A stretch of 64,000 bases of DNA from an uncultured delta proteobacterium (lineage in GTDB: Bacteria > Desulfobacterota > BSN033 > UBA1163). The stretch is taken from NCBI GenBank assembly GCA_963695895.1, contig CAVOIK010000015.1:38400-102399 (forward strand). The letters run 5' to 3'. The translations under genes were made by a program, and so were the position numbers. The first letter of the stretch is position 1; every line of letters starts with the position of its first letter. The notes below the pieces were generated by a model. The model did not search any database and was not told the origin of the DNA. It saw only the letters and a program-made list of their open reading frames with translations. Shown here one piece after another: positions 1 to 57,652 of this stretch.

Positions 1-832
1 AAGGCCCAAGTCGTCGCCGTCCTTGGGACGACCCAAGAAACGAGCCTCCGGGCAGCGTCTGCTCTTGAAAAATACGGGATTGCATCGACTCCTTACTCGA
101 ATTTCGATGACATGGTGGATCAGAGAGAGACCGGACGTTCTGGTGATCGCTTCGCCCGCGTCGACCCACTATGACTATCTGGCCAGAGGCTTGGAATCGG
201 GACTACATGTCTTCTGTGAGAAACCTTTTATTTGGAGTGTGGCTGGGCATCTGGAAAAGGCAGTGAGTCATGTGTTGAACAGGGCTCGCGAAAAACAGCT
301 CACCCTGGCCATGAATTCCCAGTTGCCTTTTACCCTGAACGATTATGAGAAACTGTGCGGGAAGATGGAACAGAGAGAGTCCAATAGGTTCTACGCGGCG
401 ATGTCACCCTTTGCTTCTGGCGCTGAGATGATTCCTGACGCAATGCCTCACGTGTTGAGCCTGCTCTATGCTGTCTTTGGAGAGGGAAAGGTGAGAAACG
501 TTCGGTTCGAGTCCACGACTCCGAGGGACCTGAAGATCGAGTTCCAATACGTGGGCTCATCCGGAATCTGTGAGACTCGGGTTGAGCTGGCGAGTCAAGA
601 GAGACAACCGAGGCCTTTTCGCTTTGGCTGGAACGGAAAGATTGTGAGCCGGAGCTTCGATCTTGCGAACTACGACATTTATTTCAATTACGAAGGCCAA
701 AGACTGAAGATCCAAGATCCCCTGGAGGCATCGGTTGTCAATTTCATCGAGGCCGTGGAAAGGAAAGTGGAGCCCCTGATTGGAAGCCGCCACATCTTGA
801 ACAACTACGGTTCTGTTGAAAGAGATTTTTGA
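1..832 (+). pseudogene. Gfo/Idh/MocA-family NAD(P)-dependent oxidoreductase, 5' partial (starts before window), apparent +1 frameshift near nt ~122
   Basis: Frame 1 from nt 1 reads ...VVAVLGTTQETSLRAASALEKYGIASTPYSNFDDMVDQRE, a typical Gfo/Idh/MocA N-terminal Rossmann region. Frame 2 (ORF 23..832) then continues PDVLVIASPASTHYDYLARGLESGLHVFCEKPF..., the conserved EKP motif. The frame switch sits in a gagagag run. Confidence 0.55.
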
Positions 833-973
833 TCAGTATGGAAAGGCCTGAGACAAGTATGGAGAATCCCGCTGCGAGGGAACATGATTTTGGCTCAAAA
901 CTGAGGCAAGACTCAGTGGTAAAGAGGCTTCAGGACTACGTGTGCTGGCAGAGGAACGTGAGAACCCACCCTG

Positions 974-2074
974 ATGGAGACACCCCCAGACTTCGGTCCT
1001 GTCTCCATCAACCTGGATCTGACGCAGGCCTGTAACTTTTCGTGCCCCTTCTGTGTGGATTCCTCGATCATCAACAGTGGCAAGTCATTCGACCTGGAGA
1101 CGATCAAGGAGACCCTCGCGATTTTACATGCCAAAGGCCTTCTATCGGTGATTCTCTTGGGAGGTGGAGAGCCAACGCTTCATAAGGATTTTGTGGCGGT
1201 TGTTCAAGACATAAAGAAGAGACAGCTCCAGGTTGGAATCGTGACCAACGGGACAAAACTGGACCGGGTTGCAGAAGTCGTGGGACTGTTAAATGAGAAG
1301 GATTGGATTCGGATTTCTCTCGACGCCGCCCGAGAAGAGACCTTTAAGGCGCTGCATCGACCGAAGACCAAGGTGACCCTGAAGCGGATCTTAGGACAGG
1401 CACAAAAGATCAAACAGATGAATTCCCAGGTCTCGCTCGGATATTCCTTTGTCATCATCTGGAACGGTGTCCAGTTCCAGGGGAAAGAACTGCCGTCCAA
1501 TCTTGATGAGATGTCTGAGGCGGTGACGCTGGCCAGAGAACACTCTTTCGACTATGTCTCGTTCAAGCCGTGCCTGGTTCGCCTCGAAAGCTCCCAGAGG
1601 GAATCTCTTCTGGATCACGTCGATGAGAATCAGGAGAGGACGATCGTCGAAGCCATCAGAGTTCGTTTGGAGGAAGCCAAGAAGGCGGCAACGGATCAGA
1701 TCAAGATTCTCGAAAGCATTAATCTCAAGGCCATGCTGAATTACGAGACAGGGACCCTTAAGAAGCAGCCTCGACGATGCCACATGCAATTCTTCAGAAC
1801 GGTGGTTACGCCCATCGGTATTTTTCACTGCCCCGCCTTTCGGGGCGTGGAGAAGGGAAAGATTGGCGAAGAGGACGGATACGCAAGCGATTCAAAATTC
1901 GGTGAGAGTTTGGTGAGAACCGGAGCATCGATCCAGACCTTCGATGCTGAAGAGGAATGTCACGAGGTGGGCTGTTTCTACCACCCAACGAATTGGTGGC
2001 TCGAAGAGCTGATTCGGTCCGGCACGGACATGCGTGAGATCACCCACGTGGAGGATGACAATTTTTTCCTTTGA
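974..2074 (+). CDS. radical SAM domain protein (CxxxCxxC; Cys-rich C-terminal half, possible SPASM/twitch-like)
   Basis: 366-aa ORF with LTQACNFSCPFCVDS (C-x3-C-x2-C) near the N-terminus and GGGEPTL. The C-terminal half has five more Cys (KPC, RRCHMQ, FHCPAF, ECHEVGCFYH). Confidence 0.6.
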   Translation: METPPDFGPVSINLDLTQACNFSCPFCVDSSIINSGKSFDLETIKETLAILHAKGLLSVILLGGGEPTLHKDFVAVVQDIKKRQLQVGIVTNGTKLDRVAEVVGLLNEKDWIRISLDAAREETFKALHRPKTKVTLKRILGQAQKIKQMNSQVSLGYSFVIIWNGVQFQGKELPSNLDEMSEAVTLAREHSFDYVSFKPCLVRLESSQRESLLDHVDENQERTIVEAIRVRLEEAKKAATDQIKILESINLKAMLNYETGTLKKQPRRCHMQFFRTVVTPIGIFHCPAFRGVEKGKIGEEDGYASDSKFGESLVRTGASIQTFDAEEECHEVGCFYHPTNWWLEELIRSGTDMREITHVEDDNFFL

Positions 2075-2078
2075 TCGG

Positions 2079-3199
2079 ATGACGGACATTAGGAAGATAT
2101 GCGTGCTCCACCTGAATCAGATTGGAGATCTGGTCTTTTCCTTGCCCTTTCTCAAAGCATTGAGAGAGTTTTATCCGAGGGCAGAGATCCATTCGGTGGT
2201 GAGGCCCCACCTTGGAGAATTGCTACAGAACTCTCCCCACATCGACATGGCCGTTAAAGAAAACGGGGGATTCTAAATGACCTTCGTCTCCTCTCTGAGA
2301 TTCGGCGAACCGGATATGACGTCGTGATCTCTCTTTCCGATTCTCCGTCTTGCCTTATGATCGCCGGACTGAGCGGAGCCAAGGGGAGGGTTGGATTTAG
2401 ACATTTCCCGTGGGATGCGGGGCTCAATGTGAGGGAGGTCCCAGAAGGTTACCACAGCTGGCACAATGATCTTAAATTCCTAAAGAGATTAAATATCCCC
2501 GTGGCTCAGATGGATTATGTCGGACTTCTCACTTTGCGTGAACGGAAAGATGCTGAAGGATCGATGGAATCCTGGTGGTCCAGGATCGGGGATCATTATG
2601 TCGTTCTGGCCCCAGGGACCTCCGTGCGAAGAGGGATGAAGGCCTGGGAAGAGAAGAAATTTGGAGAGTTGATTGCTCTTCTGAAGAAAACCTACGGTTT
2701 CACACCGTTGCTGGTCGGTGATGAAAAAGATCGTGAGGGAAATGAGAGAGTCATTGAAGAGGCGAAACAGAGAGACAGGGATGGAAAGATAGATTCCATC
2801 GTCAATCTCGCTGGCAAAACCAATCTGGTGGCCCTGTGCCAATTGCTAAAGCGAGCAAGTCTTTTTGTCGGCGTCGATTCAGGGATCATGCACCTTGCCT
2901 CCTCATTGGACATTCCTGTAGTGGGTATTTTCGGGCCCACCGACCCTTCCCAGGTGGGTCCCCAGAATAAGAAAAGTGTGGTGGTCCAAAAGAAGGAGAT
3001 GGAGTGCGTTCCATGTGACTTGAAGGGGTGTAAAGAGAGAGGGTGCCTGACAGGACTGGACGTGAAAGAGGTCTTTGACGCATGTAAGCAGGTGTTGAGT
3101 CGCTGGAGCCCCAAGGATCAAAGCCGTGGCCGCTCCTGTAAGGCTCCTGTGGGGCGACATCGCGGCCATAGCTGGGGCAACTTCTGTATGCCGGGGTAG
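2079..3199 (+). pseudogene. glycosyltransferase family 9 (LPS heptosyltransferase, RfaF/WaaC/WaaQ-like), frame disrupted at G5 run ~nt 2262-2271
   Basis: N-terminus MTDIRKICVLHLNQIGDLVFSLPFLKALREFYPRAEIHSVV in frame 0 ends at a stop at 2274. Frame 2 continues DLRLLSEIRRTGYDVVISLSDS...LAGKTNLVALCQLLKRASLFVGVDSGIMHLASSLDIPVVGIFGPTDP, the GT9 hallmark. Consistent with a 1-nt deletion or 2-nt insertion in aaaacggggga. Confidence 0.6.
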
Positions 3200-3208
3200 G
3201 GAGAAAGA

Positions 3209-3998
3209 ATGGGAAGACCAGACGAGAGACCCAAGATCTCGGTCTACATGATCACCCGCAACAATGAGCGGACCGTGGAAAGGGCGTTGGCGAAGCGTCA
3301 CGTGGGCGGATGAGATCGTGGTGGTCGATTCCTTCAGCACCGATAAGACCCCGGAGATCTGCCGGAGGTTTACGGACAGGGTGATTCAGAGGCCGTGGCC
3401 AGGGTTTCGGGAACAGTATCAGCATGCGGCAGATCTGACGACTCACCCATGGGTCATGTTTATCGATGCGGACGAAGAGGTCTCTCAGGAATTGGCCGAG
3501 GAGATTCAACGCGTCGTGAAGGAAGGGGGAAAGAGCTTCGATGGGTTCATCATCTACCGTCGAACCTACTATCTCGGACGATGGATTCGGCATGGAGCAT
3601 GGTACCCGGACTATGAGATTCGTCTGTACCGCAGGGAGAAGGGGAGATGGGAAGGAGGACTCCACGCGAAGATTGTGGTCGATGGGAAGGTGGGTTCTCT
3701 CAAGCATGAGGTTCTCCACACCACTTATCGGGACATTTCCGATCAGATTCACACCCTTGATCTCTATTCACGGATTGAAGCGGAGGATATGTTCAAAGCT
3801 GGAGAGAGGTTCAGTCTTTTCAAGCTCCTCTTCCGTCCTCCCTTTCGATGGATCAAAGAGTATCTTTTTAAACAAGGCTTTCGGGATGGAATTCCCGGAT
3901 TAGTCATCATCGTCGCAACGATGTTCTATGTCTTTATCAAACACGCCAAACTCTGGGAGTTGACCCACGTGAAGAAAGAGGGGGGAGATGGCTGCTGA
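3209..3998 (+). pseudogene. glycosyltransferase family 2 (LPS core-type GT2), apparent +1 frameshift ~nt 3293
   Basis: Frame A reads MGRPDERPKISVYMITRNNERTVERALAKRHVGG* and frame B (ORF 3264..3998) reads WADEIVVVDSFSTDKTPEICRRF...GFIIYRRTYYLGRW. Removing one A at gcgAAgcg restores ...ERALASVTWADEIVVVDS. Confidence 0.6.
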
Positions 3999-4981
3999 CG
4001 GAAGAGTGTTTGAGGGAAAGAAAGTGTTGGTGACCGGCGGGCTGGGGTTTATCGGGTCCAATCTAGCAACCCGACTTGTGGGGTTTGGGGCAGAGGTGTT
4101 GTTGGTGGATAGTCTGATCCCGGAATATGGCGGTCATCTGTTCAACATTCAACATGTGAGAGAAAGAGTGCGCGTCAATATTTCGGATGTCCGGGATGAA
4201 CACAGCATGCGCTACCTCGTGCAGGGCGAGGATTTTTTGTTCAACCTGGCGGGTCAAACGAGCCATCTCGACTCGATGACAGATCCCTACTACGGACTTG
4301 GAGATCAACGCGCGGGCACAGCTTTCGATTCTCGAATGTTGCCGAAAATATAATCCCGGTCTCAAGATCGTTTTTGCAAGCACTCGCCAGATTTATGGCA
4401 AGCCGGAATATCTGCCCGTGAATGAAAGCCATCCACTCCGTCCGGTCGATGTAAACGGCATCCACAAGATGGCAGGAGAATGCTACCATCTCCTTTATCA
4501 CACTGTTTATGGGATTCGGTCCTGCGTGCTTCGGCTCACAAACACCTACGGTCCCCGGATGCGAGTCAAGGATGCCCGTCAGACCTTCTTAGGAATCTGG
4601 ATTCGACAACTGATGGAGAACAAGCCCTTTGAAGTCTGGGACGGCACTCAACTCAGGGACTTCACTTATGTGGATGATGCGGTGGATGCGCTGCTGATGG
4701 CGGCAGGGAGCGACCCTGTCGGCGGCCACGTGTTCAACCTCGGTGGGGATTGTGTCATCAGCCTGAAGGACCTGGCAGACCTCCTGATTGAAATCCATGG
4801 AGGCGGCGAATACGTCCTTCGGTCCTTCCCGCCCAACCGTAAGCAGATTGACATTGGCAATTACTATGCGGACTTCAGCCGTATCCGAGACGTCTTGAAT
4901 TGGCGGCCCACGATCTCACTTCGGGAGGGACTGACGAGGACGTTGGCCTTTTACCGTGAGCATCTTTCCCGTTATATTTAG
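3988..4981 (+). pseudogene. NAD-dependent epimerase/dehydratase (extended SDR), apparent +1 frameshift ~nt 4300
   Basis: N-terminal ORF KVLVTGGLGFIGSNLATRL...SHLDSMTDPYYGL and the second ORF (4298..4981) EINARAQLSILECCRKYNPGLKIVFASTRQIYG...NTYGP are one SDR epimerase split in cttgGag. Confidence 0.6.
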
Positions 4982-4986: not shown

Positions 4987-6118
4987 GTGATGAACGATTC
5001 CATTAGAATTCCCCAGGTTGACCCAAGAGCGAGTTATCTGGCCCACAAAGATGAGATCGATGCGGCGATTGCGCGGGTGTTGGCGAGTGGTCGATACATC
5101 CTAGGGCAGGAAGTCGCCACGTTTGAACAGGAGTTTGCAGATTACATCGGGGTGAAATTTGGAATCGGTGTCGGAAGTGGCACGGATGCTCTGCACTTGG
5201 CGTTGCGAGCCTGCGGGGTTAGGGCAGGGGATGAGGTGATCACGGTGTCGCACACGGCCGTCGCCACCGCAGCGGCGATTGAGCTATCCGGAGCCAGAGC
5301 CTGTCTTTGTCGATATTGAACCGGACACGTTCCTAATGAGCCCGAACTGGATTGAAAAAGCGATAACGCCTCACACCAAAGCGATTCTCCCTGTCCACCT
5401 CTATGGCAATGTCGCAGAGATGGAGAGGATTTTAGATGTAGCAAATCACTATGGACTTCATGTCATTGAAGACTGTGCCCAATCTCATGGAGCCAGGTAC
5501 AAGGAGCGTCGGAGCGGTGCTTGGGGGACCGTAGCGGCCTTCAGCTTCTATCCCACGAAGAACTTGGGAGCCCTTGGAGACGGCGGAATGGTGGTCACGA
5601 ACGATTCTGAACTTGCGACACGAGTTCGTTCTCTACGGGAGTACGGGTGGCATCAGCGCTATGTCAGTGAAACAGCAGGGGTGAACTCACGCTTGGATGA
5701 GTTACAGGCAGCTGTGCTTCGGGTGAAACTGAAGTATCTGGATGGGTCGAATGAAGAGAGAAGGAGAAAGGCGCTGCTCTATACCCAGAGGCTTCAGGGT
5801 GCGGATGTCCGGTGCCCCGCCGTCAGGAAGCATGTCGATTCCGTTTATCACCTGTATGTGATCCGAACAATAGAGAGAGATTCGTTGGGGGCTTTCTTGA
5901 GGGATCGAGGGATCCAAACCCTCATTCATTATCCTGTTCCCGTTCATCTCCAGAACGCCTACAAAAAGTTGGGATACGGGACAGGAGACCTTCCCGTGAC
6001 CGAAGAGGTCTCTCGACAGATCCTGTCACTTCCTCTCTATCCAGAGATGCCAGAATCGGAAATCGAAGAGGTATCGTCCCAGATAGAGAATTTCTTCAAG
6101 AAGTATCCTGCGAAATGA
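4987..6118 (+). pseudogene. DegT/DnrJ/EryC1/StrS-family sugar aminotransferase (WbpE/PglE/ArnB-like), apparent +1 frameshift ~nt 5296
   Basis: ORF 4987..5319 ends ...VITVSHTAVATAAAIELSGA and ORF 5279..6118 continues EPVFVDIEPDTF...FSFYPTKNLGALGDGGMVVTND. One extra A in gccAgag. Confidence 0.6.
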
Positions 6119-6210: not shown

Positions 6211-7372
6211 ATGAATCCAATAAGATTTGCAACGGCGATTCGGCAGTTCTCAAAAGAGAGAGGAGGAATGGAAAGGTATCTGGTCGGGCTGTGCGACCGC
6301 ATGGTAGAAGAGGGGTTTGAGGTTCATGTGTACACGGAACGCTGGACTGAGGAAAACCCCAAGATCCATTTCCACCCTGTCAGAACGATTCCCTTTCCGA
6401 AAAGCCTTCGCCTCCTCTCCTTTGCGGTCAGGGCCACTCGTGAAATCGAGAGAGGGAGACTACCATCTGTCGTTAGGCGTCGGGACACACTCTTAGAGCA
6501 GATGTCTTCCAGCCGCACGGAGGGGTCCATTGGGCATGGTTCTGGCGCAGTCTGCAGGCTTATGACCGTCGTGTCCTCTGGATCCTAAGATTTCTCGGAA
6601 GAATTCTCAGTCCTGGCCAATGGGCCAGTGGTTGGATCGAAGGTGCACCGTACAGACAGAAGAAGCCTCCCAAGGTCATTGCGATCTCAGACATGGTCAA
6701 GGAAGATATCCTTCACTGGTACGCCATTCCGGAAGAGAAGATTACCGTCATCTACAATGGTGTCGATCTCAAACGGTTCTCCCCCGAGAATCGGCAATAC
6801 CGGGATTCGATAAGAAAGAGGCACGGCTTAGGGGAGGAGAAGGTTATTCTTTTTGTTTCCAATAATTTTAGGATGAAAGGGTTAGCTCACCTGATGGAGG
6901 CCCTGGCTCTCCTTAAGAAGGAAGGAGGTGCCTCCGTTGAAACTCTTGGTCTTGGGAAGAGACCGGAAGGCTCCTTTCTTAGCGTCTGGCCACAAAGCTT
7001 CGGGATTTCTCGAAGAGGTCCTCTTTGCCGGGAGCACGGCCGAACCTGAAAAATATTATGGTGCAGCCGACCTCCTTGTCCACCCTACGTTCTACGATGC
7101 CTGTTCCCTAACCGTCATTGAAGCTCTGTCGAGCGGCCTGCCGGTCCTTACCAGCTCGGCCAATGGGGCGAGCGGAATCGCGCAATCAAGGGGAAAGGGT
7201 CCGGGTGATTGAGGATCCCAAGAAGGTGGATCAGATGAGCCAAGCGATCAGGGATCTCCTTGTTGAAGGGGGTTCACCTGTTAGAAGTCGTGTCGAGTCT
7301 TTCTCGGAGGAGCGAAACTACAGGCAGATGTCGGAGGTTTTTAGGCAGGTCGCGAGAGGTCGAAGAGGATAG
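6211..7372 (+). pseudogene. glycosyltransferase family 4 (GT-B, group 1), at least 4 frameshifts (~6457, ~6485, ~6929, ~7200)
   Basis: Pieces in three frames join into one GT4: MNPIRFATAIRQFSKERGGMERYLVGL...REIERG / DYHLSLGV / GHTLRADVFQPHGGVHWAWF...KVIAISDMVKEDILHWYAIPEEKITVIYNGVDLKRF...LLKKEGG / PPLKLLVLGRDRKAPFLA...LFAGSTAEPEKYYGAADLLVHPTFYDACSLTVIEALSSGLPVLTSSANGASGIA / RVRVIEDPKKVDQMSQAIRDLL. Confidence 0.55.
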
Positions 7373-7429: not shown

Positions 7430-8047
7430 ATGAATTGGAGCGAACAAGTTCTGTGGCGGGAGAGAATTCATCGTCGATACCCGGAGATTTGGAATCTGAA
7501 GGTTGTAAGGAAGCGACTCCCATTCATCCTGAAGTATGTGAGGGAGGGCGAATCCATTCTTGACGTAGGAGCCTTCGATCGCGCCTTGGGAGAGCGGATT
7601 AGAAGCCGTTGCCCCTCGGTGCGTTACAAAAGTATGGATATTGATTCCACCTACCCGCATGACTATTACTCACTCGAGGAGATTCGGGAGACCTTCGACG
7701 TGATTCTCTTGTTTGAAGTGATTGAGCATCTGGATCTGGAACAAGGCAGAGCCATGATGGCGAGGATCTTCCAGATCTTGAATGGCGGGGGGAGGGTCAT
7801 CTTGAGCACCCCGAACGTCTACACCCCTGGACATTACTGGAAAGATGTCTCTCATCTGACGCCATACCATTACGATGAACTAGGCGGATTGTTGCTCAGT
7901 CAAGGATTTGAGGTTGTTGAAATCTGTCGGTACTTTCACGACGCATTCTTACGGTTTTTTTTGAAAGTTCATCTCCTACACCCTGTCTTCCGATTGATGG
8001 GTGTTGATTTTTCTCAATCAATTTTTCTGGTGGCGAAAAAAGCATGA
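7430..8047 (+). CDS. class I SAM-dependent methyltransferase
   Basis: 205-aa intact ORF with ILDVGAFDRALGERI (SAM-binding motif I-like) and GGRVILSTPN. Stop overlaps the next start (ATGA). Confidence 0.5.
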   Translation: MNWSEQVLWRERIHRRYPEIWNLKVVRKRLPFILKYVREGESILDVGAFDRALGERIRSRCPSVRYKSMDIDSTYPHDYYSLEEIRETFDVILLFEVIEHLDLEQGRAMMARIFQILNGGGRVILSTPNVYTPGHYWKDVSHLTPYHYDELGGLLLSQGFEVVEICRYFHDAFLRFFLKVHLLHPVFRLMGVDFSQSIFLVAKKA

Positions 8048-9038
8048 AGGTTGGTTTCCTGATTCATGGGTTAGACGTCAGCAGTTGTCGTTATCGGGTC
8101 CTTCAGTATTTGCCGTATTTGAAGGACCACGGGATAGAGACATCGGTCTTGTTCTACCCCAGGACGTGGTTTGCCCGGGTTCAGTTTCCTCGTTTACTGA
8201 CAGAACTCGACCTCCTCTACATTCACAGGAAACTATTCCACCCGCTGGAATTCTGGCTGATCCGAAAGAAGGCCAGAAAGATCATCTACGATTTCGATGA
8301 TGCATTGATGTACAGGAGTTCCGGCCCGAGGGGTCCTCATTCGATCTCGCGACGCACCAAATTCGCTTACATGGCGAGACGGGTGGACACGTTGGTGGCG
8401 GGGAATCAGTTTCTACGATCGGAAGCGCTTCCATATAACTCCCACGTGGAAGTCATTCCCACTTCCATCGATCTCTCGCATTATGGAGTCAAGAACAAGT
8501 TTCATCCTGAAGGACCTCTGATCATTGGGTGGCTTGGAAGCAGCAGCACCTTGAAGTATTTGAAGCTTCTCATGCCGACCCTTGAGGCTCTTTATCAGCA
8601 TTACCCACACTTTCAACTGAAGATCGTTTGCGATCAATTCTTGGAAAGTTCCATCCTCCCTGTGATCAAGAAGCGGTGGTCCCTCGATGAAGAAGGGAGT
8701 TGATTTGCAAGAGCTTCGACATCGGCATCATGCCTCTGGCCGATGATCTCTGGTCCAGGGGAAAGTGTGGGCTAAAAATCCTTCAGTATTACGGCGCCGG
8801 TGTCCCAGCCGTGGTTACTCCCGTGGGAATCAATAGAGATATCGTCAAGGATGGCGTCAATGGCTTCTGGGCTCACCATGAGGAGGAGTGGAAGGATCGC
8901 CTTCTCAGATTAATTCAAGACGGGACGTTGAGGCGAGAGATGGGATTGCGAGGCAGAGAGACTGTGAAAAATGAGTATTCCCTCGAAGTCAATGGACCCC
9001 GAGTTTTGACTGTTCTTCAAAGAACGTCAGCTCTCTGA
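8044..9038 (+). pseudogene. GT-B fold glycosyltransferase (family 1/4-like), frame break ~nt 8698
   Basis: ORF 8044..8703 (...LKIVCDQFLESSILPVIKKRWSLDEEG) and ORF 8700..9038 (LICKSFDIGIMPLADDLWSRGKCGLKILQYYGAGVPAVVTPVGINRDIVKDGVNGF) form one GT-B C-terminal domain. Consistent with -1 or +2 at agaagggagttga. Confidence 0.5.
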
Positions 9039-9084: not shown

Positions 9085-10687
9085 ATGAAGTTTTCTTCCG
9101 AAGGAATGAAGGGTTGGATCGAAGACGACATTTTTCATCTTCTTCCGTCCTCCTTCCTCGAAGACCCCTTCCATTCCATCCAAGCTTTGAATGGCCAGTT
9201 GATTAAAGAATCGAAATGGAGACGGGCGGCCTTCGTTATTTTACCGACTGGACAGAAGGTCTTTCTGAAAATCGACAAGAGCAAGGACTGGCTTGAATAT
9301 CTCAAATATCTGATTCTACCCTCGAAGGCACGGAAGGAGTGGCTCGTAGCATATAGTCTGCGAAGACAAAGACTTCCCGTCCCGAAACCGATGGGTTGGA
9401 TCGAAAAACGAAGGCTGGGATCCGTCAAGGAGAGTCTCTACCTCTCAGAAGTGCTTGAAACAGGGGTTTCGGCTTCTGATGAGCTAGGCACACTCCAAAG
9501 CGAATCCATGGTGAGACCCCTGGCAGAGACCCTGAGGCGCTTCCATGATGCCGGGTTGACCCACAACGATTTGCACATCGGGAACTTCTTGTGGGTCAAA
9601 GGGATCTCTTTTTCTCACCGATCTGCATAGTGCCTCGATCCGTAAGGCCACCTCCTTAAAGCAAAGACTATGGAATATAACGCATCTGTTTCATTCTCTC
9701 AGATCGTTTTGGTTGGAAAAGGAACAGAGGGCATTTCTTGAAATCTACTTTGAAAAGGAAATCGGTTCTCTTCAGAAAAGGGAAGTGTTCCTTCGGCAGA
9801 TCCATCACGGCATGGATCGTCTTCAGAGAAGACAGTGGCGTAGCAGGACCAAGAGGTGCCTCAAGAACAGCACGGAGTTTTTGCTCGAAAAGGAAGGGAA
9901 CCTGACGGTTTTCCGCCGGAAGGATTTTCCCCTCGACGAGTTAAAAGCCGCCGTAGAAGGTCATCGGAATCTTGCACGGGAAAAACCTGAGGGTCTGGCT
10001 AAACATTCTCCGAGAGTCATCGTTTCTGTGACTCAGAGGCGAGACAAGAAGCTCGCAGTCAAACAGTTCTGTTATCCTTATCTCTGGGATCGCTTGAAGG
10101 ACTTTCTACGAAGATCCAGGGGACGCAAGGCCTGGATTGGAGGGAATGGGTTAAAGGCGCGAGGCATCTCCTCTGTCCAACCCTTAGCCTTGGTTGAGAC
10201 GAACCATTGGCTAGGGCCAAAGGAAAGTTTTTTCCTGATGGAAACTCTTGAAGGAAGTCAGGAGCTTGATCGGTATGTCTTGCAGGGTCTCGGAGGCTTC
10301 AGAAGAAAGAGAATATTCATTAGGTCCTTTGCCGGGTGGCTTGCAGATCTTTATAATAAAAAAATCTATCACAAGGACATGAAAACCTGTAATTTTTTGG
10401 TGGTTGAGAAACAGAGGTCGTGGGATTTCTATCTTTTGGATCTCGAAGATGTGAGGTTCGGGCAGAGAGTGACGGAGAGGAAGTTGTTCAAGAATTTTTT
10501 CCAGTTGAACACCTCTACGCCCAGAATCATTTCCCGAACGGACCGGTTAAGGTTTGCCAAGGAATGTCTCGGACGGATTCCGGACATCAAGAACGCGAAG
10601 AGGCTGCTGCGTCAGGTGGCTCAGGAGAGCCTGGGGAGGGATGTGGTGTATGTTTCCCCCCATGGCACGGTCGTCGAGAAGCTGTAG
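9085..10687 (+). pseudogene. fused tandem lipopolysaccharide kinase (Kdo/WaaP family) domains; KdkA-like N-half + WaaP/RfaP-like C-half; apparent +1 frameshift ~nt 9600
   Basis: ORF 9085..9630 ends ...RFHDAGLTHNDLHIGNFLWVKG. Frame 2 continues without stops (SLFLTDLHSASIRKATSLKQRLWNITHLFHSL...) into ORF 9713..10687, which holds IYHKDMKTCNFLVVEKQRSWDFYLLDLEDV, a second kinase catalytic motif. Confidence 0.55.
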
Positions 10688-21649: not shown

Positions 21650-22788
21650 CTATGCTTCAAGAACTTGCCTGACGAGATCGGTCAAGATCTTCTTGTTCTG
21701 TTCTGAGGACAAGGTCCGTGCGATCTTGTGAGACTGCAACTTATAATAATTCACTTTTTCCCGATCCAACGCTAGAAGGCAACGCGCAAGCGCTACCGGG
21801 GTAAAATCCGGCGAGATGAGACCGAGGTCATGTTCTTTCACAATCCGAGCCATCTCCGGGGAAGGTCCGATCGCGAGGGCAAGCCGAGCCTGGATAAATT
21901 CGAAGAATTTGTTGGGTAGGCTATGAAGGGAATTGAAGTTGAGGGGTTCGAGAAGATGTACTCCTACATCGAAGGAATTGAGGACCCGAGGAAGAATTCT
22001 CATGGGGACGGGGAGGAGAAAATGGATGTTTGCCCTGCGTCGAGCCAAACCCTTCAGATGGTTGAGATATCTTGAGTCTGAACCGGTTAACATGAAGTTA
22101 AGTTCGAATCGGTCGTCCAGATCGTCCATCATTCTGATGATATTCTCCACCTTTCGAGGGGGGCTGGCAACGCCGTGATGAATGAGATGGATTCGCGTTT
22201 GGTCCTTCGAACGAAGCTGTGGTTGAATTTCCTCGTAATCGGTAGCACTGGTGATGACAAGCGGTTTGATCCCTGTATCGCGTTGATAGGCCTCGGCGAT
22301 CCCTTGACAGACGGTGGTCATCCCATGGACCTGGGGAATGTACTTTCGGCACAGATAGGTCGCATAATTTTGGAAGAGGAGCCTCCATGAGAGAACATCT
22401 TCGTATTCCCGCGGGTGCATACTCGTGGGCATCCAGGATCACCTTGGCCCCCTTTGGCCACTTTCAATGCCAGAGGAAGGGTTTGAAGGTCATTGGCCAG
22501 GATCAGGTCCGCATGGACGTTCGACAGTTTGTTGAATGCATCGATGACGTGCTTTTGCTGCCAGTACCAATGATCATACCGGTGGAATAGGATTTGAAGG
22601 AAGGCCAAAGGATTGGGAGAGCTCTTCTTCATTTTCGTGACAGGAATGAACTCCACGCCCTCCACCTCGGGATGAGCCAGACCGACAGCAATGACGCGAT
22701 ACGTGTCCCTGAGAAAGCGTATTTGACGATTGACCCGAGGGTCAGTGGCAAGGTTTGAAAAAGCGATAATGAGGATGGTCTTCGTCAT
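21650..22788 (-). pseudogene. uncharacterised GT-B-like protein, paralog C; two +1 frameshifts ~36 nt apart (~22411 and ~22447, the latter in a C5/G5 run)
   Basis: Minus-strand frames give ALKVAKGG / KVILDAHEYAP / REYEDVLSWRLLFQNYATY..., matching paralog B ALRLARGGKVIFDAHEYAPRQYEDVFQWRLLFQEY. Confidence 0.55.
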
Positions 22789-25543: not shown

Positions 25544-27232
25544 TTATGCTAATCGAGATACCCCAAGGCTTTTCAATTTGTCCTTTATCTCTGACTCCTG
25601 TTCTGGAGTGTAAGTCATCTCTCCCTCTTGCGAGAGCATGGACGTGCCTCGGCGGTCCGATAACCTCAAAGGATCCAGTCCCTGGTCGAAAATATCCAGC
25701 ACCCTCCCATCCATCTCCGGGGTGAGGGGAATCCCGACGGTGTAGGTAGCGGTGGGAGCGACATCAACGATATGGGCTCTTCCAAGGGAATGATTTTGGC
25801 GGATCCCGGGTCCCCAGGCGATGAAGATCCCGTCTCTCTTGTGGGCACCCGTGGTCACCAAGGAATCGCGGAACACCTCACGGGTGAAATAGGACGGATG
25901 GGGGTTGCCCACATCCATAAAGGTGATGAGATCCGGGGCTAAGTGTGCGAAGGGTCCGTGATAAACCTCGCTGCCCTCACGGAGATCTGTAATCACGGGC
26001 TTTCCGTTGTGGGGGAATCGCAAACCGAGAAGCTGCTCTCTCAGATCGTTGAGAATCTTCTGGCTTTCTTTCCCCGGGGACACGATTCCTTTGGGCTCAC
26101 GTCCTTTTCTGTTGATTCGAACCCCGTAGTGATCGGTGAACGCCTGGGTACGATCCCAATCTACCCTCTCCTCGGCCACCCACTGTGCGATCTTCTGTTG
26201 GTAATGACGGGGATCACTTGCTTTAAGACTCTGTTGTTTTCTCTTGCGGTTGAGCCGGACCAGGCGGTTGTAGACGGCCTCTGTGCCAGGGATTTTTCTG
26301 ATCAGCGCTTTGACCGGGTTCTGCTTTTCCGAGAGAATGGGGGTCTTAAGGGTTAGAAACCCTCTTTCTTCGAGAAACTTGTTCAAGTAGAAGATCTTTT
26401 CGAGTGGGCCTGCCCCGTGATCGGAAACGACAAAGACCTGGGTGTCAGAGGGTCGTGCTTCTGTGATGATCCGTACTGCTTCGTCCAGTGCCTCATAGGT
26501 TCTCGGAATCACCCGATTCAAGGAGGAATCCTTTTGATGATGAAAGAGGTGGGATTTGTCCATCTCCGCCCAGAAGTGATGCTGGACCCGATCCAACTCC
26601 GTGAAGACGACCATAAAGAAGTCCCAGGTTTCCTTTTCCATCAGGAATTGAGCTGCCTGGGTGCGAGCTTGTATCGTGTCAAAGAGAGCCTCTGCATAGG
26701 CTCCTTTGCCGGCAGTGCTTTCGAGATCAAAATCGAATGGAGAAACTTCGGTCACATAATTTGGAACCACCTTTAGCAATTCCTGTTGGAATTCCGGCGG
26801 AAAGGTGAACCTCGCTCCCTGAGGAGTGAGCATTCCAGAGATGATCGTGCCGTTGATCGGATAGGGTGGGAATGAGATGGGTTCGTTGATCAGCACACTG
26901 GACTTCCCATACTCTGAAAGCAGACGGGGGAGAGTCTTTGCTCTCACGGTGGTGGAGTTGGGCAATTGGAACCGATAATTGTTTTGATCATCCCGCACCC
27001 CAAACCCAAACACCCCATGTTTCCCTGGATTGACTCCTGTCATGCAGGATGTCCACGCCGGCGCGCTGTGCGGAAAGGCAGTCGACTCCAGGACCGCTCT
27101 CGTTCCTTCACGGAGCAGCCGCTCGATCGTTGGCAACTTGCCTTCGCTGATCAAAGGTTCGATGACCTCAAAGGTCGCTCCATCCAGTCCAATCACCAGA
27201 ATTCGTCCCATCATCTTCCTCTTTGCCGTCAA
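25544..27232 (-). CDS. alkaline-phosphatase-superfamily protein (type I phosphodiesterase/nucleotide pyrophosphatase-like, PF01663-type), paralog 1; probable 1-nt indel at C-terminus (~25556)
   Basis: 562 aa ...ILVIGLDGATFEVIEP...VVSDHGAGPLEK...; no signal peptide. Terminal codons read ...KLKSLGVSRLA*; removing one G of ggggta gives ...KLKSLGYLD*, matching the LGYL tail of the paralogs. Confidence 0.55.
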   Translation of the reverse strand: MTAKRKMMGRILVIGLDGATFEVIEPLISEGKLPTIERLLREGTRAVLESTAFPHSAPAWTSCMTGVNPGKHGVFGFGVRDDQNNYRFQLPNSTTVRAKTLPRLLSEYGKSSVLINEPISFPPYPINGTIISGMLTPQGARFTFPPEFQQELLKVVPNYVTEVSPFDFDLESTAGKGAYAEALFDTIQARTQAAQFLMEKETWDFFMVVFTELDRVQHHFWAEMDKSHLFHHQKDSSLNRVIPRTYEALDEAVRIITEARPSDTQVFVVSDHGAGPLEKIFYLNKFLEERGFLTLKTPILSEKQNPVKALIRKIPGTEAVYNRLVRLNRKRKQQSLKASDPRHYQQKIAQWVAEERVDWDRTQAFTDHYGVRINRKGREPKGIVSPGKESQKILNDLREQLLGLRFPHNGKPVITDLREGSEVYHGPFAHLAPDLITFMDVGNPHPSYFTREVFRDSLVTTGAHKRDGIFIAWGPGIRQNHSLGRAHIVDVAPTATYTVGIPLTPEMDGRVLDIFDQGLDPLRLSDRRGTSMLSQEGEMTYTPEQESEIKDKLKSLGVSRLA

Positions 27233-28629: not shown

Positions 28630-28773
28630 GTCTCGCTCCTGCTCCAGAACTCGAAAGGGGATCTCATCCTCCGTTGAATCAATAAGGAAACCCTTTCTCT
28701 TTCAATTCAATTGAAACTATGGGTGACTGGGGTGATACGACAACCATTTTTATTCTTCACCCTCATCCAGAGC

Positions 28774-30495: not shown

Positions 30496-30504
30496 TCAAA
30501 TTCC

Positions 30505-32972: not shown

Positions 32973-32980
32973 TCGCCGGT

Positions 32981-34637
32981 TTAAAGGTACCCAAGGTCTT
33001 CGAGAGATCTGCGCACCGATTCATCCTGAATTTCCTTGGCCCCCCGTTCTGTGCGCAGAGTAGGTGCGTTCACGAAACGGATCTCCCTTCGAGCGAAATC
33101 ACTCTCGGGTTCGAAGAGATCTTTCAGAACTCTTCCGTCCATATCGTCGGGAATTGGGATTTCAAGAATGTGGAGAAGGGTCGGGACGATGTCAATGATC
33201 TCCGCTTGTCCTAATCGATGGTCTTTGCGAATCTCAGGCCCTCTGACAATGAGAATCCCCTCAGGACGATGGGTTCCGCTGTAGTCCTCGCGGAGGGAGT
33301 CCTTTTGAAAAACAGCCCCCTGAACAAAAGAGGAACGAGAGATGCAGCGCCAGTTATTGATCACGTAAACAAGATCGGGCGCCTGAGATAGATATTTTTC
33401 GCGATACAGTTCTTCTCGCTTGAATATTTGAATCTGCAAATTTGGAGTGGTTGCACTGAGCACTCTGAGTTCATGGATAATTTGTTCTCTGAGCTCTTCG
33501 TATAACCGTGGGGAAACCGTGCCCTGATCTTGGCGGCCCTCCGAATTGATGTAAATTGTTCCGTAGACCGATGTATGAGGAGGACTGTAAGCTCTTGTTC
33601 TGCTCCAGTCAATCTGCCCCAGCATCGACTCATATGAAACCTTCCTCTCTTTCGGCTTGCTTAGGAACCGGGGCGCCCGTTGTCTCAAGTTTTCTGGCAG
33701 AGGAAGGTGTTGGGCGAGGTTGGAGCTGAAATTGTGGATTCTCTGGGAAAACGACTTGGATTTCAGTCCATCCCCTTTGAGCTTGAGAAAACCTTTTTGG
33801 AGAAGCCACTGATTGATGTAAAAGGTTTCGTCTTGAACTCCAAACCCGTGATCGGAAAGAATAAAAACGGTTGTCTTGTCATCCGTTGTCTCCAAGATGT
33901 TTCCCACCGCTTCGTCGAGATGTTTCCAGAAGTCATGGACCAACTCTCGATACTTCGTGTGATGGACGTCGTCTCCATGTTCTTCAGGATCCATGTATCT
34001 CCACAGTCGATGCTGGACGCGATCCGTGCACGTGAAGGCGAAAATGAACAATTCGGGGTCGTATTTGTTTTTCAGAAAGTGATAAGCTTTCATCCTCTGA
34101 TCAAGTAGACTGTGTACATCGTTAAGAAAGTCTTCGTGCCTTCGGTAGTTCCTATATCGGATGTCGGTACGGTGCCCTCCCGTCACACGATCGAGCTCTG
34201 CCTTTAACTCTAAGGGGTAAGTGTAATCTTGAGCATGGTCGGGAATTGGAAAACCTGCCACTAAGAACCCATTCATTTCCACCGGAGGATACGTGGTGGG
34301 CAAGTCATAAACACCGATGCAGCAATCGCCAAGGGAGCCGACGATATCCCAGATCGTTGGGTCGGGGAGTTGTCCAAGCTGAATCAAAGAGGTCTGATAT
34401 CTCTTGGGGTCGTGCCTTAGAAAGTCAAAGACTCCTGTCGTGCCAGGATTTTTCCCCGTCTTGAAGGCGTGCCAAGACGGACCGCTTACAGGGGGCATGG
34501 TGGATAGAAGCTCTCCGCTCGAACCCTCCGCCATAAGTTTGGCTAGGTTTGGTAAAGTGCCCCTCCTCTATCAAAGGGCGGATCACTTTGAAAGTGACAC
34601 CATCCAATGCAATCAGCAAAACCCTATTTTTCAACAT
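32981..34637 (-). pseudogene. alkaline-phosphatase-superfamily protein (PF01663-type), paralog 3; apparent +1 frameshift ~nt 34560 (C4 run)
   Basis: N-terminal piece MLKNRVLLIALDGVTFKVIRPLIEEG (ORF 34425..34637). Frame of ORF 32981..34534 continues TLPNLAKLMAEGSSGELLSTMPPVSGPSWHAF...; ends ...RSLEDLGYL*. Confidence 0.55.
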
Positions 34638-43291: not shown

Positions 43292-43442
43292 TCAGTGAGC
43301 AGTAATCAGTGATCAGTGGTCAGTAATCAGTAAGCAATGACTTAATGACCAATAACTAGTGGGTTAATGACCCAATTACCCAATAACCTAATAAGCGATA
43401 ACCTGGTGACCAGTGGTTTAATGACCCAATAACCCAATGACG
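43276..43442. repeat. heptanucleotide tandem-repeat array (cagtRRt x~9, then cccaata/taatgac-type units)
   Basis: aatagtaat cagtagt cagtgag cagtaat cagtgat cagtggt cagtaat cagtaag caatgac ttaatga ccaataa ...; begins inside the last codons of xerC and fills the xerC-hslV spacer. Confidence 0.6.
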
Positions 43443-44024: not shown

Positions 44025-45360
44025 TGGAGAATTTTACTCCCCGTGAGATTGTTTCAGAATTAGACAAGTATATTGTCGGCCAGAAGGACGCCAAGCGCTG
44101 CGTGGCTATTGCCTTGCGTAACCGGTGGAGGCGTCAGCAAGTCCCTGAGGCTCTCCGCGATGAGATTGCACCCAAGAACATCATCATGATTGGTCCCACG
44201 GGAGTCGGAAAAACAGAGATTGCGAGAAGGTTGGCCAAGCTGGCCCAGGCTCCGTTCTTGAAAGTGGAGGCGTCGAAATATACTGAAGTCGGCTATGTGG
44301 GTCGGGATGTGGAGTCTATGATTCGGGATCTCGCGGAGCTCGCGGTGAACATGTTGAAGGCAGAGGAATCGAAGAAGGTTCGGACGAAGGCCGAGGAAAT
44401 AGCGGAAGAGAGACTTCTCGATCTTCTTCTTCCCCGTTCTGGCCGAGGGGTGCGGGGTGCATAAGGAAGAAGAGGATCAGCAAACAACACGGGAAAGACT
44501 CCGAAGACTGCTGAAGTCGGGAAAACTGGACGAGCGATATGTGGAAGTCGAGGTGACGGATCGGGGCATCCCCATCGTCGAAATCTTCTCCGCCTCCGGG
44601 ATGGAAGAAATGGACATCAACGTTAAAGAGATGTTCAGCGGCCTCTTCCCCAAGAAGAAGAAACAGAAGAAGGTCAAGGTTCCCGAAGCCCTTGGTCTCT
44701 TGGTTCAGGAAGAAGCCCAGAGACTGATCGATATGGACTCGGTGGTCAAACAGGCCATCGAGCGTGTCGAGCAATCGGGTATCATTTTTGTCGATGAGCT
44801 CGATAAGGTGGCAGGTCGCGAGTCCACCTATGGACCTGACGTGTCGAGAGAGGGCGTCCAGCGGGATATCCTGCCTATTGTGGAAGGGACGACCGTGATG
44901 ACCAAGTACGGGATGGTGAAGACCGATCATATCCTCTTCATTGCTGCAGGTGCCTTTCACGTGTCGAAGCCTTCCGATCTGATTCCGGAGCTCCAAGGTC
45001 GGTTTCCCATTCGAGTCGAGCTCGGCCCTTTGGGGAAGGATGACTTCGTCAGGATTCTGACGGAACCCGAAAACGCTTTGATCAAACAATATATCGCCCT
45101 CATGGACACAGAACGGGTCAAACTGGAATTCAAGAAGGACGGGATTGCGGAAATCGCCGCCACGGCCGCTCTGATCAATGAACGAACCGAGAACATCGGT
45201 GCGAGGAGACTCTACACGATCATGGAAAGGTTGCTTGAGGAGATTTCCTTTGATGCACCAGAGGTGGCTGGTCAAGTCCATGGTCATCGATGCAATTTAC
45301 GTGCGAGAGAAGTTGAAAGAGTTTGTGGAGGATGAAGATCTTAGTAGGTTTATACTGTGA
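44024..45360 (+). pseudogene. hslU: ATP-dependent protease ATPase subunit HslU with two apparent +1 frameshifts (~44433 in a C4 run; ~45273)
   Basis: [23 protein letters not shown]...[22 protein letters not shown]...LLDLLLP / ...[23 protein letters not shown]...[10 protein letters not shown]...[15 protein letters not shown]...[28 protein letters not shown] / [28 protein letters not shown]. The C-terminus matches E. coli ...[10 protein letters not shown]. Confidence 0.7.
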
Positions 45361-45364
45361 AAAA

Positions 45365-46438
<1,074 letters not shown>

Positions 46439-46457
46439 GAAAGAAAACTCCGGAAAC

Positions 46458-46545
46458 AATGGAGTGATGGAGTAGTGGAATAATGGAATGCTGATCATCA
46501 AGGCCTTAACCCAACACTCCATTACTCCACTACTCCAATAACCCA
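46458..46545. repeat. heptad-repeat hairpin (ggagtga tggagta gtggaat aatggaa ... ccattac tccacta ctccaat aaccc)
   Basis: The two arms are approximate reverse complements around loop ctgatcatcaaggccttaacccaa; argB-argD spacer. Confidence 0.5.
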
Positions 46546-47771: not shown

Positions 47772-47895
47772 TCCATGGACATTGACTGATGATCAATGAC
47801 TCATGACTCAATGACTCAATGACCTTACTGACCCAATGACCCAATGACTCAGTGACTGAATGACTGAATGACCTCATGACTCAGTGATCCATCGG
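47767..47895. repeat. octanucleotide tandem-repeat array (Rtgactca / atgaccca, ~13 units)
   Basis: caatgatc catggaca ttgactga tgatcaa tgactca tgactcaa tgactcaa tgacctta ctgaccca atgaccca atgactca gtgactga atgactga atgacctc atgactca gtgatcca; begins at the argD stop. Confidence 0.6.
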
Positions 47896-54629: not shown

Positions 54630-54759
54630 CGTTTAACCCCTTTCTGTGAAGTTTATTGATTTTTCTAACATTTTCATTTAGCGTGTGTCAAGTTTTGCTT
54701 CCTTTTCCCGTCACATGGATAAGGAGTAGAGGCGATAGATCAAGAGGAGAACGTCCAGT

Positions 54760-54886: not shown

Positions 54887-54892
54887 TGTCCT

Positions 54893-56416
54893 ATGACTGA
54901 ACAACACAAGATTACCAGAGCAGCCACCACGATCGGGACCGGAACGCTTCTCAGTCGTATCCTGGGATTTCTGAGGGATATGGTTATTGCCAATTTCTTT
55001 GGGGCCGGGATGGCAGCAGACGCTTTTTTTGTCGCTTTTCGCCTTCCCAATCTCTGGAGGAGATTGGTCGGAGAGGGGTCGATGACCATCTCCTTTATCC
55101 CCGTCTATACGGAGTACCTGACGCAGCGTTCAGAGGAAGAATCGAGGGAACTGACCCACATCGCCTTTACGTTGGCTGGGACTCTCTTGGCCATCCTCAC
55201 CATTCTGGGCGTCGTTTTTGCGCCCCTCCTCGTACGGATCATTGCACCAGGATGGGTGAGAAAATCCCCAGAAACATTCCAACTGACGGTAACGTCTTAG
55301 TCAGGATCATCTTTCCCTATATCTTCTTCATGGGCTTGTTTGCTCTGGCCATGGGGATACTGAATTCCCGCAGGCATTTTTTCGCCCCCTCTCTTGCTCC
55401 GGTCTTTCTCAACATCTGCATGATTCTGTCTGTTCTGCTATTTTTTTTCCATTTAAAACCACCTGTGTTGACTCTTGCCTTCGGAGTTCTTGCCGGGGGT
55501 GTTCTGCAGTTCTTGTTTCAGATCCCTTTTTTGTCGAAGAAGGGGATCACCTTTCGATTCAACTTTGATGTCAGGCATCCCGCCATTCGACGAATCGGGC
55601 TTCTCATGGTTCCGGGTCTGATCGGGACGGCGGTCTATCAACTCAACGTCTTTATCGATACGATCTTTGCTTCCTTTTTGCCCGGCGGAAGCGTTTCCTA
55701 TCTTTACTTTGCGGACCGACTCATGGAGTTTCCCCTCGGGATCTTTGCAGTCGCCATGGGGGTGGCTGCCCTCCCCAGTCTTTCAGAACTGGCCTCTAGG
55801 GGAAGGAAAGAGGAGCTGAGCGAAACCGTTTCGTTTGCGTTTCGGCTCGTTTCCTTTATCAGTGTTCCTGCACTGGTAGGGTTGATTGCCTTGAAGACGC
55901 CTATCATCAACCTTCTCTTCCAGAGGGGAGTTTTCGACGAACATGCGACCCAGATGACGGCGAGAGCTCTGCTCTGCTATTGCGTGGGACTCTGGGCCAT
56001 CGCCGGAGTGAGGACCGTTGTCCCCGCCTTCTATGCCCTCCAGGATACGAAGACCCCTTTGAAGATTGGACTGATTTGCTTGGGCGCAAATGTTGTCCTG
56101 AATGCCGCTCTTGATCGTTCCTCTCCAGCATGCTGGGTTAGCCCTTGCCACCAGTCTTTCATCTTTCCTGAACCTCGTTCTTCTGTCGAGGAAACTGAGA
56201 GAAGCCCTGGGAAAGATCGACTTCAGGAAGGATATCAAATCTCTAATGCGACACTTTGCCTGCAGCGTGCCCATGGGGTTGGCGGCCTATCTGATTTGTT
56301 CTTCTGGAGACTGGACCCAGGCGGGCCGCAGCCTGCCCAAGCTTTTTCTTCTGATGATTGGAATCGTTGTCGGAGCAGGCGTCTACCTGGCGTGCTCTTA
56401 CTGGACGAAAGAATGA
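54893..56416 (+). pseudogene. murJ: lipid II flippase MurJ (MviN) with two apparent frameshifts (~55297 and ~56113)
   Basis: MTEQHKITRAATTIGTGTLLSRILGFLRDMVIANFFGAG...PETFQLTVT / LVRIIFPYIFFMGLFALAMGILNS...GLICLGANVVLNAAL / IVPLQHAGLALATSLSSFLNLVLLSRKLRE...YLACSYWTKE*. Confidence 0.7.
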
Positions 56417-56491
56417 AGAGATGCTGTTCTTGTTGAAGATGGTGAAAAGGAAGAGGCGACCCTGAAGAGCAGGAAGGGACCGTTCCTTGCT

Positions 56492-57652
56492 ATGATAGAA
56501 AAGGCTGCAGATGTTGTCATCGTCGGCGGAGGGGTCATCGGAGCAAGCATTGCCTACCACCTTGCCATGAGAAAGGCGGGCAGGGTGCTTCTGCTCGAAA
56601 AAGGGCAGCTCGGCGAGGGTTCCACGAGTCGCTGTGTCGGGCGGAATCCGAACCCAATTCTCCACCGAGATCAATCTCCTGTTCTCTCTGGAATCCTTGA
56701 AAACCTTTGAGCAGTTTCAAGACGAATTTGGCGTCGATCCTGAATTCAGGCGCATCGGCTATCTCTTCCTGGCGACGATCACCCATTGAGATGAAAATAT
56801 TTAAGGAAAACGTTATAGTTGCAGAGAAAATATGATATCCCTGTTGAACTTTTGAACGGCGATGAGATCAAGAGAAGGTGGCCCTACTTGAGGACGGACG
56901 ACATCGTGGGCGGAACCTTCTGCCCCTGGGATGGGTATGCGGGCCGAGTGAGGTTCTGTCAGGATTTGCCGCTGCCGCGAGAAGGGCGGGGGTAAAGATT
57001 CATGAAGGGGTTGAAGCCGTCGGGATTCAAGTGAAGGGAGGAAAGGTCGAGTCCGTCACCACAAAAGAAGGGGAAATCTCAACGCGTGTTGTCGTGAATG
57101 CGGCAGGTCCCCACGCCGCCGCAGATTGGAGCGATGGCAGGCGTGGACGTTCCCGTCAAACCCCTCCGAAGGCAGATCTTCGTCACAGCACCTTTTCGGC
57201 TCACGGACCAGGCGATCCCATTAACCATCGATTTTCACAGGGGCTGGTATTTTCGTCAGGAAGTGGACGGTTACCTTCTTTCAGGGCCTCTGGACAAGGA
57301 GCCAAGCTTCAACCTCACTCTTGACTATGAAGCCATGGCAGAGGCTGTTGACCACGCAATCTATCGTGTCCCAACACTGGAGAATGCCCGGATTGCAAGA
57401 GGATGGGCAGGACTTTATGAGATTTCTCCTGACCATCATGCCATCCTGGGAAGGGTGCCTGAAGTCGAAGGCTTCATTCTGGCAAACGGGTTCAGTGGTC
57501 ACGGATTTCAACATAGTCCTGCGGTGGGAAAAGTGATTGCAGAACTCATCGTGGATGGGAAGGCGACGACCATCGACATTTCACCCCTCTCTATTGAGCG
57601 CTTTTCGAGAGGCGAACTTATTCAAGAGTCCATGACCGCCTTCAAGGATTGA
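56492..57652 (+). pseudogene. FAD-dependent oxidoreductase (DAO/sarcosine-oxidase-beta/ThiO-like), five frameshifts in 1.16 kb (~56639, ~56784, ~56833, ~56935, ~57122)
   Basis: MIEKAADVVIVGGGVIGASIAYHLA...GSTSRCV / GGIRTQFSTEINLLFSLESLKTFEQF...GYLFLATIT / IEMKIFKENVIVAEKI / DIPVELLNGDEIKRRWPYLRTDDIVGGTFCPWDGYAG / PSEVLSGFAAAARRAGVKIHEGVEAVGI...VVVNAAGPHAA / QIGAMAGVDVPVKPLRRQIFVT...ANGFSGHGFQHSPAVGK. Confidence 0.6.

Follow-up and report, generated by a model that had tools for sequence, protein, structure and literature searches.

The 64,000-nucleotide stretch analysed here (the window), positions 38,400 to 102,399 of contig CAVOIK010000015.1 in assembly GCA_963695895.1 of an uncultured delta proteobacterium, carries 32 frameshifting insertions or deletions (indels) in the coding sequence of 17 genes, as well as one non-coding insertion at position 45544. 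These indels are specific to this sequence, avoid homopolymers, fall on sites that are polymorphic among its relatives and carry both of the alleles found there. They are very probably an artefact of assembly or consensus calling of some kind, and we assign a probability of about 0.7 to a specific mechanism, namely a consensus artefact that arose from collapsed strain polymorphism. The frameshifts are real in the sequence as given and, if anything, were under-counted by a first-pass annotation of the window, which had reported 27 of them.

Where single genes were expected, the listing of open reading frames (ORFs) in the window contained many overlapping fragments on the same strand. We located the frame changes by three kinds of evidence: single-base blastn gaps against relatives, tblastn frame junctions, and Pfam coordinates that run consecutively across fragments. 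The close relatives were contigs from short-read metagenomes, mostly with 87-96% DNA identity to the window. At 1-6.5 kb they were L001 (Joint Genome Institute, JGI; 93.7% DNA identity), L002-L004 and L169 (MEGAHIT contigs from ENA, 88-90%) and L170 (90%); at 11.7-20.9 kb, L088-L093 (86.6-96.4% DNA identity), four of which cover 12-21 kb; at 42.2-54 kb, L085-L087 (89-99% identity); and at 58-61.7 kb, L167 and L168. Comparison at the protein level used family-level metagenome-assembled genomes (MAGs; L005-L010), in which LeuS is ~80% identical. A scan of GTDB species representatives yielded only family-level relatives (LeuS <=81%), usable for frame junctions and not for base-level placement.

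The window proved to be collinear with these relatives, and isolated 1-bp gaps in the blastn alignments fell exactly at the frame changes. Similarly, tblastn with the ORFs of the relatives gave adjoining matches whose frame changed at those positions. In the 13 relatives that cover such sites (six at 1-6.5 kb, four at 12-21 kb and three at 42-54 kb), the frames were intact at 19 of 19 sites, the undamaged proteins being 309 residues (GFO_IDH_MocA), 404 (radical SAM), 363 (GT9), 262 (GT2), 330 (epimerase), 375 (DegT), 442 (HslU), 294 (ArgB), 399 (ArgD) and 865 (LeuS) in length. All but one of the 27 frameshifts reported previously were present at or within ~20 bp of the position given, as judged by blastn gaps, tblastn junctions or Pfam coordinates. 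The remaining one, at 25556, is suggested only by the C-terminus of a paralogue. To these we add sites at 806, 975, 3167, 46250 and, more tentatively, ~56410. As the first-pass annotation had described, most of the shifts are +1 (27, versus five -1 shifts at 2255, 3167, 8698, 55297 and 56935), and the genes that it had named as unbroken, among them leuS, argD, asnB and the gene for a 706-residue protein, are intact. The sites are listed below, with coordinates in the window and strand.

121..122 (+): GFO_IDH_MocA oxidoreductase gene; +1; the window reads GAT[CA]G, where L001 has A, and L002 and L170 have C.
805..806 (+): the same GFO_IDH_MocA gene, ~14 codons before the stop; +1; the window reads AA[CT]ACGG, where L001 has AAC and L170 has AAT, which are synonymous.
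975..978 (+): radical-SAM gene, at about codon 40 (homologues have 404 residues); +1; T, the allele of L002, stands beside G, the allele of L170.
2255..2256 (+): GT9 heptosyltransferase gene; -1 (GTT-AAAG); for the lost base, L001 has C, and L002-4, L169 and L170 have G.
3167..3168 (+): GT9 gene, last codons; -1, AA to A; the stop codon is lost and the ORF runs on to 3199.
3292..3294 (+): GT2 gene; +1; the window reads GC[GA], where L001 has GCA, and L002 and L170 have GCG, which are synonymous.
4290..4291 (+): NAD-dependent epimerase gene; +1; the window reads TA[CT]ACG and the relatives TAT; the implied allele TAC would be synonymous.
5296..5298 (+): DegT/DnrJ aminotransferase gene; +1; from comparison by blastn and tblastn.
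6453 (+): GT4 glycosyltransferase gene (6211-7372); +1.
6481 (+): the same GT4 gene; +1.
6910..6930 (+): the same GT4 gene; +1, from frame 3 to 1; placed by Pfam coordinates only.
7190..7210 (+): the same GT4 gene; +1, from frame 1 to 2; position approximate.
8690..8700 (+): glycosyltransferase gene at 8044-9038; -1; probably the third base of a Gly codon.
9590..9612 (+): gene for a two-domain Kdo/WaaP-type kinase (9085-10687); +1.
19841 (-): GT1/GT4 gene at 19366-20500; +1.
22414..22418 (-): glycosyltransferase gene at 21650-22788; +1; CC[CG]CGG on the coding strand, compatible with synonymous Pro codons CCC/CCG.
22447..22451 (-): the same glycosyltransferase gene (21650-22788); +1 within a G5 run (C5 on the plus strand); the sole break clearly inside a homopolymer.
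25556..25559 (-): phosphodiesterase-family gene at 25544-27232, last four codons; putative +1, from the C-terminus of the paralogue only.
34558..34561 (-): paralogous phosphodiesterase-family gene at 32981-34637, near the N-terminus; +1; in or adjoining a G4/C4 run.
44448..44461 (+): hslU; 7-bp tandem duplication (GGGGTGC twice), equivalent to +1, in a stretch dense in single-nucleotide polymorphisms (SNPs).
45274..45275 (+): hslU, 28 codons before the end; +1, A to AA.
45544 (+): non-coding, just upstream of the argB start; 1-bp insertion, seen only against L085.
46250 (+): argB; +1; AA[AG], compatible with synonymous Lys codons AAA/AAG; distinct from the site at 46262.
46262 (+): argB; +1.
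46348..46349 (+): argB; +1; the window reads CAT[GA]CGC, where L087 has A and L085 has G.
55280..55297 (+): murJ; -1, between positions 99 and 100 of the Pfam MurJ profile.
56097..56108 (+): murJ; +1, at profile position ~370.
56403..56413 (+): near the murJ C-terminus; tentative +1, from a short match to one relative.
56637..56641 (+): DAO-family FAD oxidoreductase gene (56492-57652); +1.
56777..56786 (+): the same DAO-family gene; +1.
56819..56832 (+): the same DAO-family gene; +1.
56899..56962 (+): the same DAO-family gene; -1; position approximate.
57122..57150 (+): the same DAO-family gene; +1.

In the genes with several breaks, the fragments follow one another along the corresponding Pfam profiles. 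Those of the GT4 gene match positions 2-72 and 72-170 of Glyco_transf_4 and then 3-43 and 40-134 of Glycos_transf_1, those of MurJ match positions 1-99, 100-371 and 370-431, and the five DAO fragments, in different frames, match 1-44, 43-94, 110-153, 133-227 and 208-353. The DAO breaks were placed by Pfam coordinates alone, the gene being present in none of the relatives fetched; L167 and L168, which were reached through the 706-residue gene, end in the intergenic region at ~57.9 kb, short of the DAO/murJ patch. In argB, the insertions at 46250, 46262 and 46348 add up to +3, and the frame is regained after ~33 scrambled codons that include four stops.

The composition of the inserted bases links the indels to polymorphism. 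At five of the nine insertions to which at least two relatives could be aligned (121, 806, 975, 3292 and 46348), the alleles of two relatives stand side by side in the window. When random insertions were simulated in the same three-way alignments, such a match occurred at 4-9% of sites (P about 5e-4). At 806, the AAT allele was predicted before L170 was fetched, and L170 then proved to carry it; at 975, the window is identical to L170 apart from the added T. Among the 13 precisely placed insertions, the inserted base forms a transition pair with its neighbour in 11 (null expectation 0.43, P=0.003), and the implied change is a synonymous transition in seven, nearly all of them at third codon positions (null expectation 0.17, P=0.002). 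The implied allele pairs thus look like natural SNPs. The base deleted at 2255 coincides exactly with a C/G polymorphism: C is found in L001, and G in five other relatives. Sites that were placed by translation suggest the same, although not rigorously: the insertion at 22414 would correspond to Pro CCC/CCG and that at ~9600 to Lys AA[AG], and the bases lost at 8698 and 55297 would be the third bases of four-fold degenerate codons.

Homopolymers, in contrast, were avoided. In the 26.9 kb aligned to close relatives, none of the 365 homopolymers of at least 4 nt (91 of at least 5 nt) changes length at a frameshift, and the few gaps that touch such runs are in intergenic repeats, represent in-frame length variants or lie within the 7-bp duplication. 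The inserted base was identical to a neighbouring base in only one of the 13 precisely placed insertions, while 5.6 were expected at random (P=0.007), which is the opposite of what homopolymer-type sequencing error or slipped-strand mutation would produce. These results argue against an earlier proposal that the uneven distribution of the breaks reflects systematic error at specific motifs. Visual inspection of the insertion sites likewise gave no motif that recurred beyond chance; the candidates included a Dam site, GATC, at 121, and the sequence CTACGG, seen at both 806 and 4290. It had also been stated that several breaks lie in homopolymers. This holds clearly for 22447 (G5 on the coding strand) and perhaps for 34560 and 25556, all three outside the alignments to close relatives, but not for two others. 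The heptosyltransferase break, assigned to a G5 tract, is really the deletion at 2255, 7 bp upstream, and the tract is equally long in L001, L003 and L004. The hslU break, assigned to a C4 run at 44432-35, is really the 7-bp duplication at 44448-44461.

The 32 sites are unevenly distributed along the window, as had been noted before. Their variance-to-mean ratio in 2-kb bins was 2.5, a value reached by none of 20000 random placements, and eight of the gaps between sites are <=150 bp, which was reached in 0.1% of placements. Dense patches occur at 0-9.6, 19.8-25.6, 44.4-46.4 and 55.3-57.2 kb. No indels were found at 9.7-19.8 kb, even though 11.7-19.8 kb was aligned to relatives of similar divergence (86.6-96.4% identity). 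This unevenness is better explained by patches of strain polymorphism than by error at particular motifs; the indels coincide with SNP positions, and the two alleles are both present there. The mismatch density around six indels covered by L001, at ~5.6% (roughly 8 of 144 bases, counted by eye) versus a background of 6.3%, was uninformative.

The ends of the relatives' short-read contigs were a separate observation. Those of L001, L002, L090, L093, L086, L167 and L168 lie at or beside the dense patches, at ~5.3, 6.5, 19.8-20.9, 54.0 and 57.9 kb, and 54.0-57.9 kb, where murJ and the DAO gene are located, is spanned by none of the relative contigs obtained. This pattern is suggestive only; it is consistent with strain microdiversity breaking de Bruijn graph assemblies and could in part be a product of contig retrieval.

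The simplest explanation of these indels is a consensus procedure acting on a mixture of strains. The reads behind the contig would come from a natural population of at least two strains, distinguished by SNPs that occur in patches, and the consensus step would be one that prefers gaps to mismatches, as do long-read consensus methods based on partial order alignment or directed acyclic graphs and the older multiple alignments of overlap-layout assemblers. At a SNP with alleles x and y, the reads would then be laid out in two adjacent columns, as an insertion plus a deletion. If both columns passed the vote, the consensus would read xy, a 1-bp insertion, and if neither passed, the base would be lost, a 1-bp deletion. 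Larger scrambles could result where SNPs are dense, such as the 7-bp duplication in hslU, which is surrounded by four SNPs in 8 bp. Under such a mechanism, indels are expected to be concentrated in regions of difference between the co-assembled strains and to be missing elsewhere. A precedent comes from PacBio data, where collapsed alleles and nearby variants give indel errors and apparent frameshifts (PMC8445201). In that collapsed-haplotype long-read assembly of Trypanosoma brucei Lister 427, allelic variants close to one another shifted the read alignments and put indels into the consensus, ORFs were truncated and genes miscalled as pseudogenes, and nearly all errors were indels or complex variants rather than substitutions (PMC8445201). 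The alleles of T. brucei are those of homologous chromosomes, whereas here they would belong to bacterial strains that co-occur in a metagenome or enrichment, and the side-by-side alleles are demonstrated here only by comparison with relatives.

Several observations weigh against collapsed strain polymorphism and must be set beside the alternative that the indels are random residual errors of a poorly polished or low-coverage long-read assembly, with no relation to polymorphism and with patchiness that reflects local drops in coverage. The second allele was unseen among the few relatives for four of the nine testable insertions, as random errors would allow, and the deletion at 3167 (AA to A) is not at a known polymorphic site. 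No close relative covers about half of the 32 sites, whose placement is precise only to 5-60 bp, the statistical tests rest on 9-13 sites, and the breaks at 22447, 34560 and 25556 may be ordinary homopolymer errors. Moreover, the sequencing platform, the assembler, the consensus method and the mixture of strains are all things that we infer. Random errors would fit indels that are insertion-biased, non-homopolymeric, single-base and clustered, and frameshifts caused by long-read indels are common (PMC8445201, PMC9262707). We nevertheless consider this explanation unlikely, since it predicts neighbour matches at ~43% of insertions (observed 1/13), transition pairs at ~43% (observed 11/13) and the alternative allele of a relative at 4-9% (observed 5/9), and it leaves the synonymous bias unexplained. 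Consensus indels in Nanopore data are typically linked to homopolymers (PMC9262707). The homopolymer errors of Nanopore, 454 and Ion Torrent sequencing (e.g. PMC9262707) resemble the present case in that assemblies of good quality in other respects come to contain frameshifts and split gene calls, but these errors are changes in run length, which affected none of the 365 runs here, and the inserted bases avoid identity with their neighbours. Expansion of IUPAC (International Union of Pure and Applied Chemistry) ambiguity codes to two bases was also considered and was ruled out, as the base order is inconsistent (GA and AG) and there are deletions and a 7-bp duplication.

Explanations that take the sequence to be accurate fare worse. 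It is very unlikely that the broken genes are real, recent pseudogenes of a decaying genome, although many genes are interrupted, some repeatedly, and several of these are accessory surface-polysaccharide genes that are possibly dispensable. Relatives with DNA identity as high as 96% share none of the interruptions, the affected genes include murJ and argB, and amino-acid identity is 88-97% on both sides of the breaks versus 94-97% in intact neighbours. The broken genes contain no independent nonsense codons, stops occurring only downstream of a shift, and no large deletions or loss of conservation were seen in them; the DAO gene has five frameshifts in 1.2 kb without other damage. The earlier preference for indel errors in the assembly over genuine pseudogenes is therefore supported by intact relatives, normal conservation and the lack of independent nonsense codons. 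Reductive genomes such as those of Mycobacterium leprae and Sodalis exhibit nonsense codons, deletions, relaxed constraint and lesions common to relatives. The window is like these pseudogene-rich genomes in having many interrupted genes, some with several frameshifts, but none of those other features was seen in it. Bacterial pseudogene decay is biased towards deletions, the opposite of the 27:5 excess of insertions, and real indel mutations are concentrated in homopolymers, which the indels here avoid. Slipped-strand phase variation had been proposed for a subset of sites, the heptosyltransferase G5 and the glycosyltransferase C5 at 22447, and as an explanation of that subset it is extremely unlikely. 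Phase-variable glycosyltransferases of lipopolysaccharide (LPS) or lipooligosaccharide synthesis with homopolymeric tracts are found in Neisseria, Haemophilus and Campylobacter. As in those contingency loci, surface-polysaccharide genes are frameshifted here, and the break at 22447-22451 lies in a 5-nt G/C run within a glycosyltransferase gene. At the heptosyltransferase, phase variation is refuted by a tract of unchanged length and an indel outside it. At 22447 it is unlikely: a second, non-homopolymer frameshift lies 33 bp away, so that the protein would stay broken if only the tract were corrected, and for a contingency locus a run of 5 nt is short. In addition, most breaks are outside repeats and housekeeping genes are hit equally. 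To programmed recoding that keeps the genes expressed, by ribosomal +1 frameshifting, transcriptional slippage or RNA editing, we give virtually no credence. The predominance of +1 events is its sole support, whereas the 13 precisely placed insertions have no sequence context in common, the shifts are conserved in no relative and the orthologues have no shift at any site, an Rfam scan found no element in the window, and the shifts include several of -1 and one of +7. There is, equally, hardly any chance that the sequence is accurate and that dozens of mostly non-homopolymeric insertions in essential genes such as murJ and argB are accommodated by genome-wide recoding or by deletion-editing at the RNA level.

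Other features of the window and its relatives were recorded. L170 has a compensating pair of 1-bp indels of its own, 5 bp apart, in the DegT gene (5023-5028 in the window) relative to the window, L001 and L002, which could be either natural variation or a small contig error. When the shift at ~9600 is corrected, the gene at 9085-10687 encodes ~470-530 residues with two Kdo/WaaP-type LPS kinase domains and matches a 473-residue ORF of L109. On the minus strand, 25544-34637 holds a run of genes of the phosphodiesterase/sulfatase superfamily, adjoining a polysaccharide flippase and several glycosyltransferases; those at 25544-27232 and 32981-34637 are paralogues with similar N- and C-termini, and both are frameshifted. 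A conserved, intact gene pair at 57991-61658 (-) encodes the 706-residue protein, called hypothetical by JGI, some homologues of which match transaldolase family PF00923, and a 516-residue UxaE-like protein (PF16257). Homologues of the pair, with 65-95% identity, number in the hundreds across MAGs of Thermodesulfobacteriota.

Degenerate tandem arrays of 7-8 nt units occupy intergenic positions around hslVU, argB, argD and leuS, at 43280-43440, 45363-45398, 46440-46545 and 47764-47887. Their units are AGTAATC, CAGTGAT, CAATGAC and ATGACTCA, with AAGGGGTC at 45363, and a pair of arrays at 46440-46545 forms an inverted repeat, the two halves facing one another. The same arrays are present in L085-L087 but differ in length, often by 7 bp or multiples thereof. 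JGI and ENA metagenomes supplied the LeuS proteins closest to that of the window, with 99-94% identity, and the best GTDB species representatives by LeuS (only 79-81%) are MAGs that bear the labels Thermodesulfobacteriota, Syntrophaceae, Syntrophorhabdus or delta proteobacterium. The lineage is an uncultured relative of Syntrophaceae within Thermodesulfobacteriota.

The relevance of these frameshifts is to annotation rather than to biology, and they reveal no new biology. As had been anticipated, naive gene calling splits or loses genes, at least 17 of them on this contig. In such a call, MurJ, ArgB, HslU and much of the LPS/exopolysaccharide cluster would appear as pseudogenes or as missing, with the consequence that genome completeness, metabolism and the number of pseudogenes would be misjudged for the lineage. 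The pattern also provides a diagnostic that needs no reads: an insertion that consists of two SNP alleles, mostly transition pairs and often at synonymous third positions, and that avoids homopolymers would point to collapsed-strain consensus error and not to mutation.

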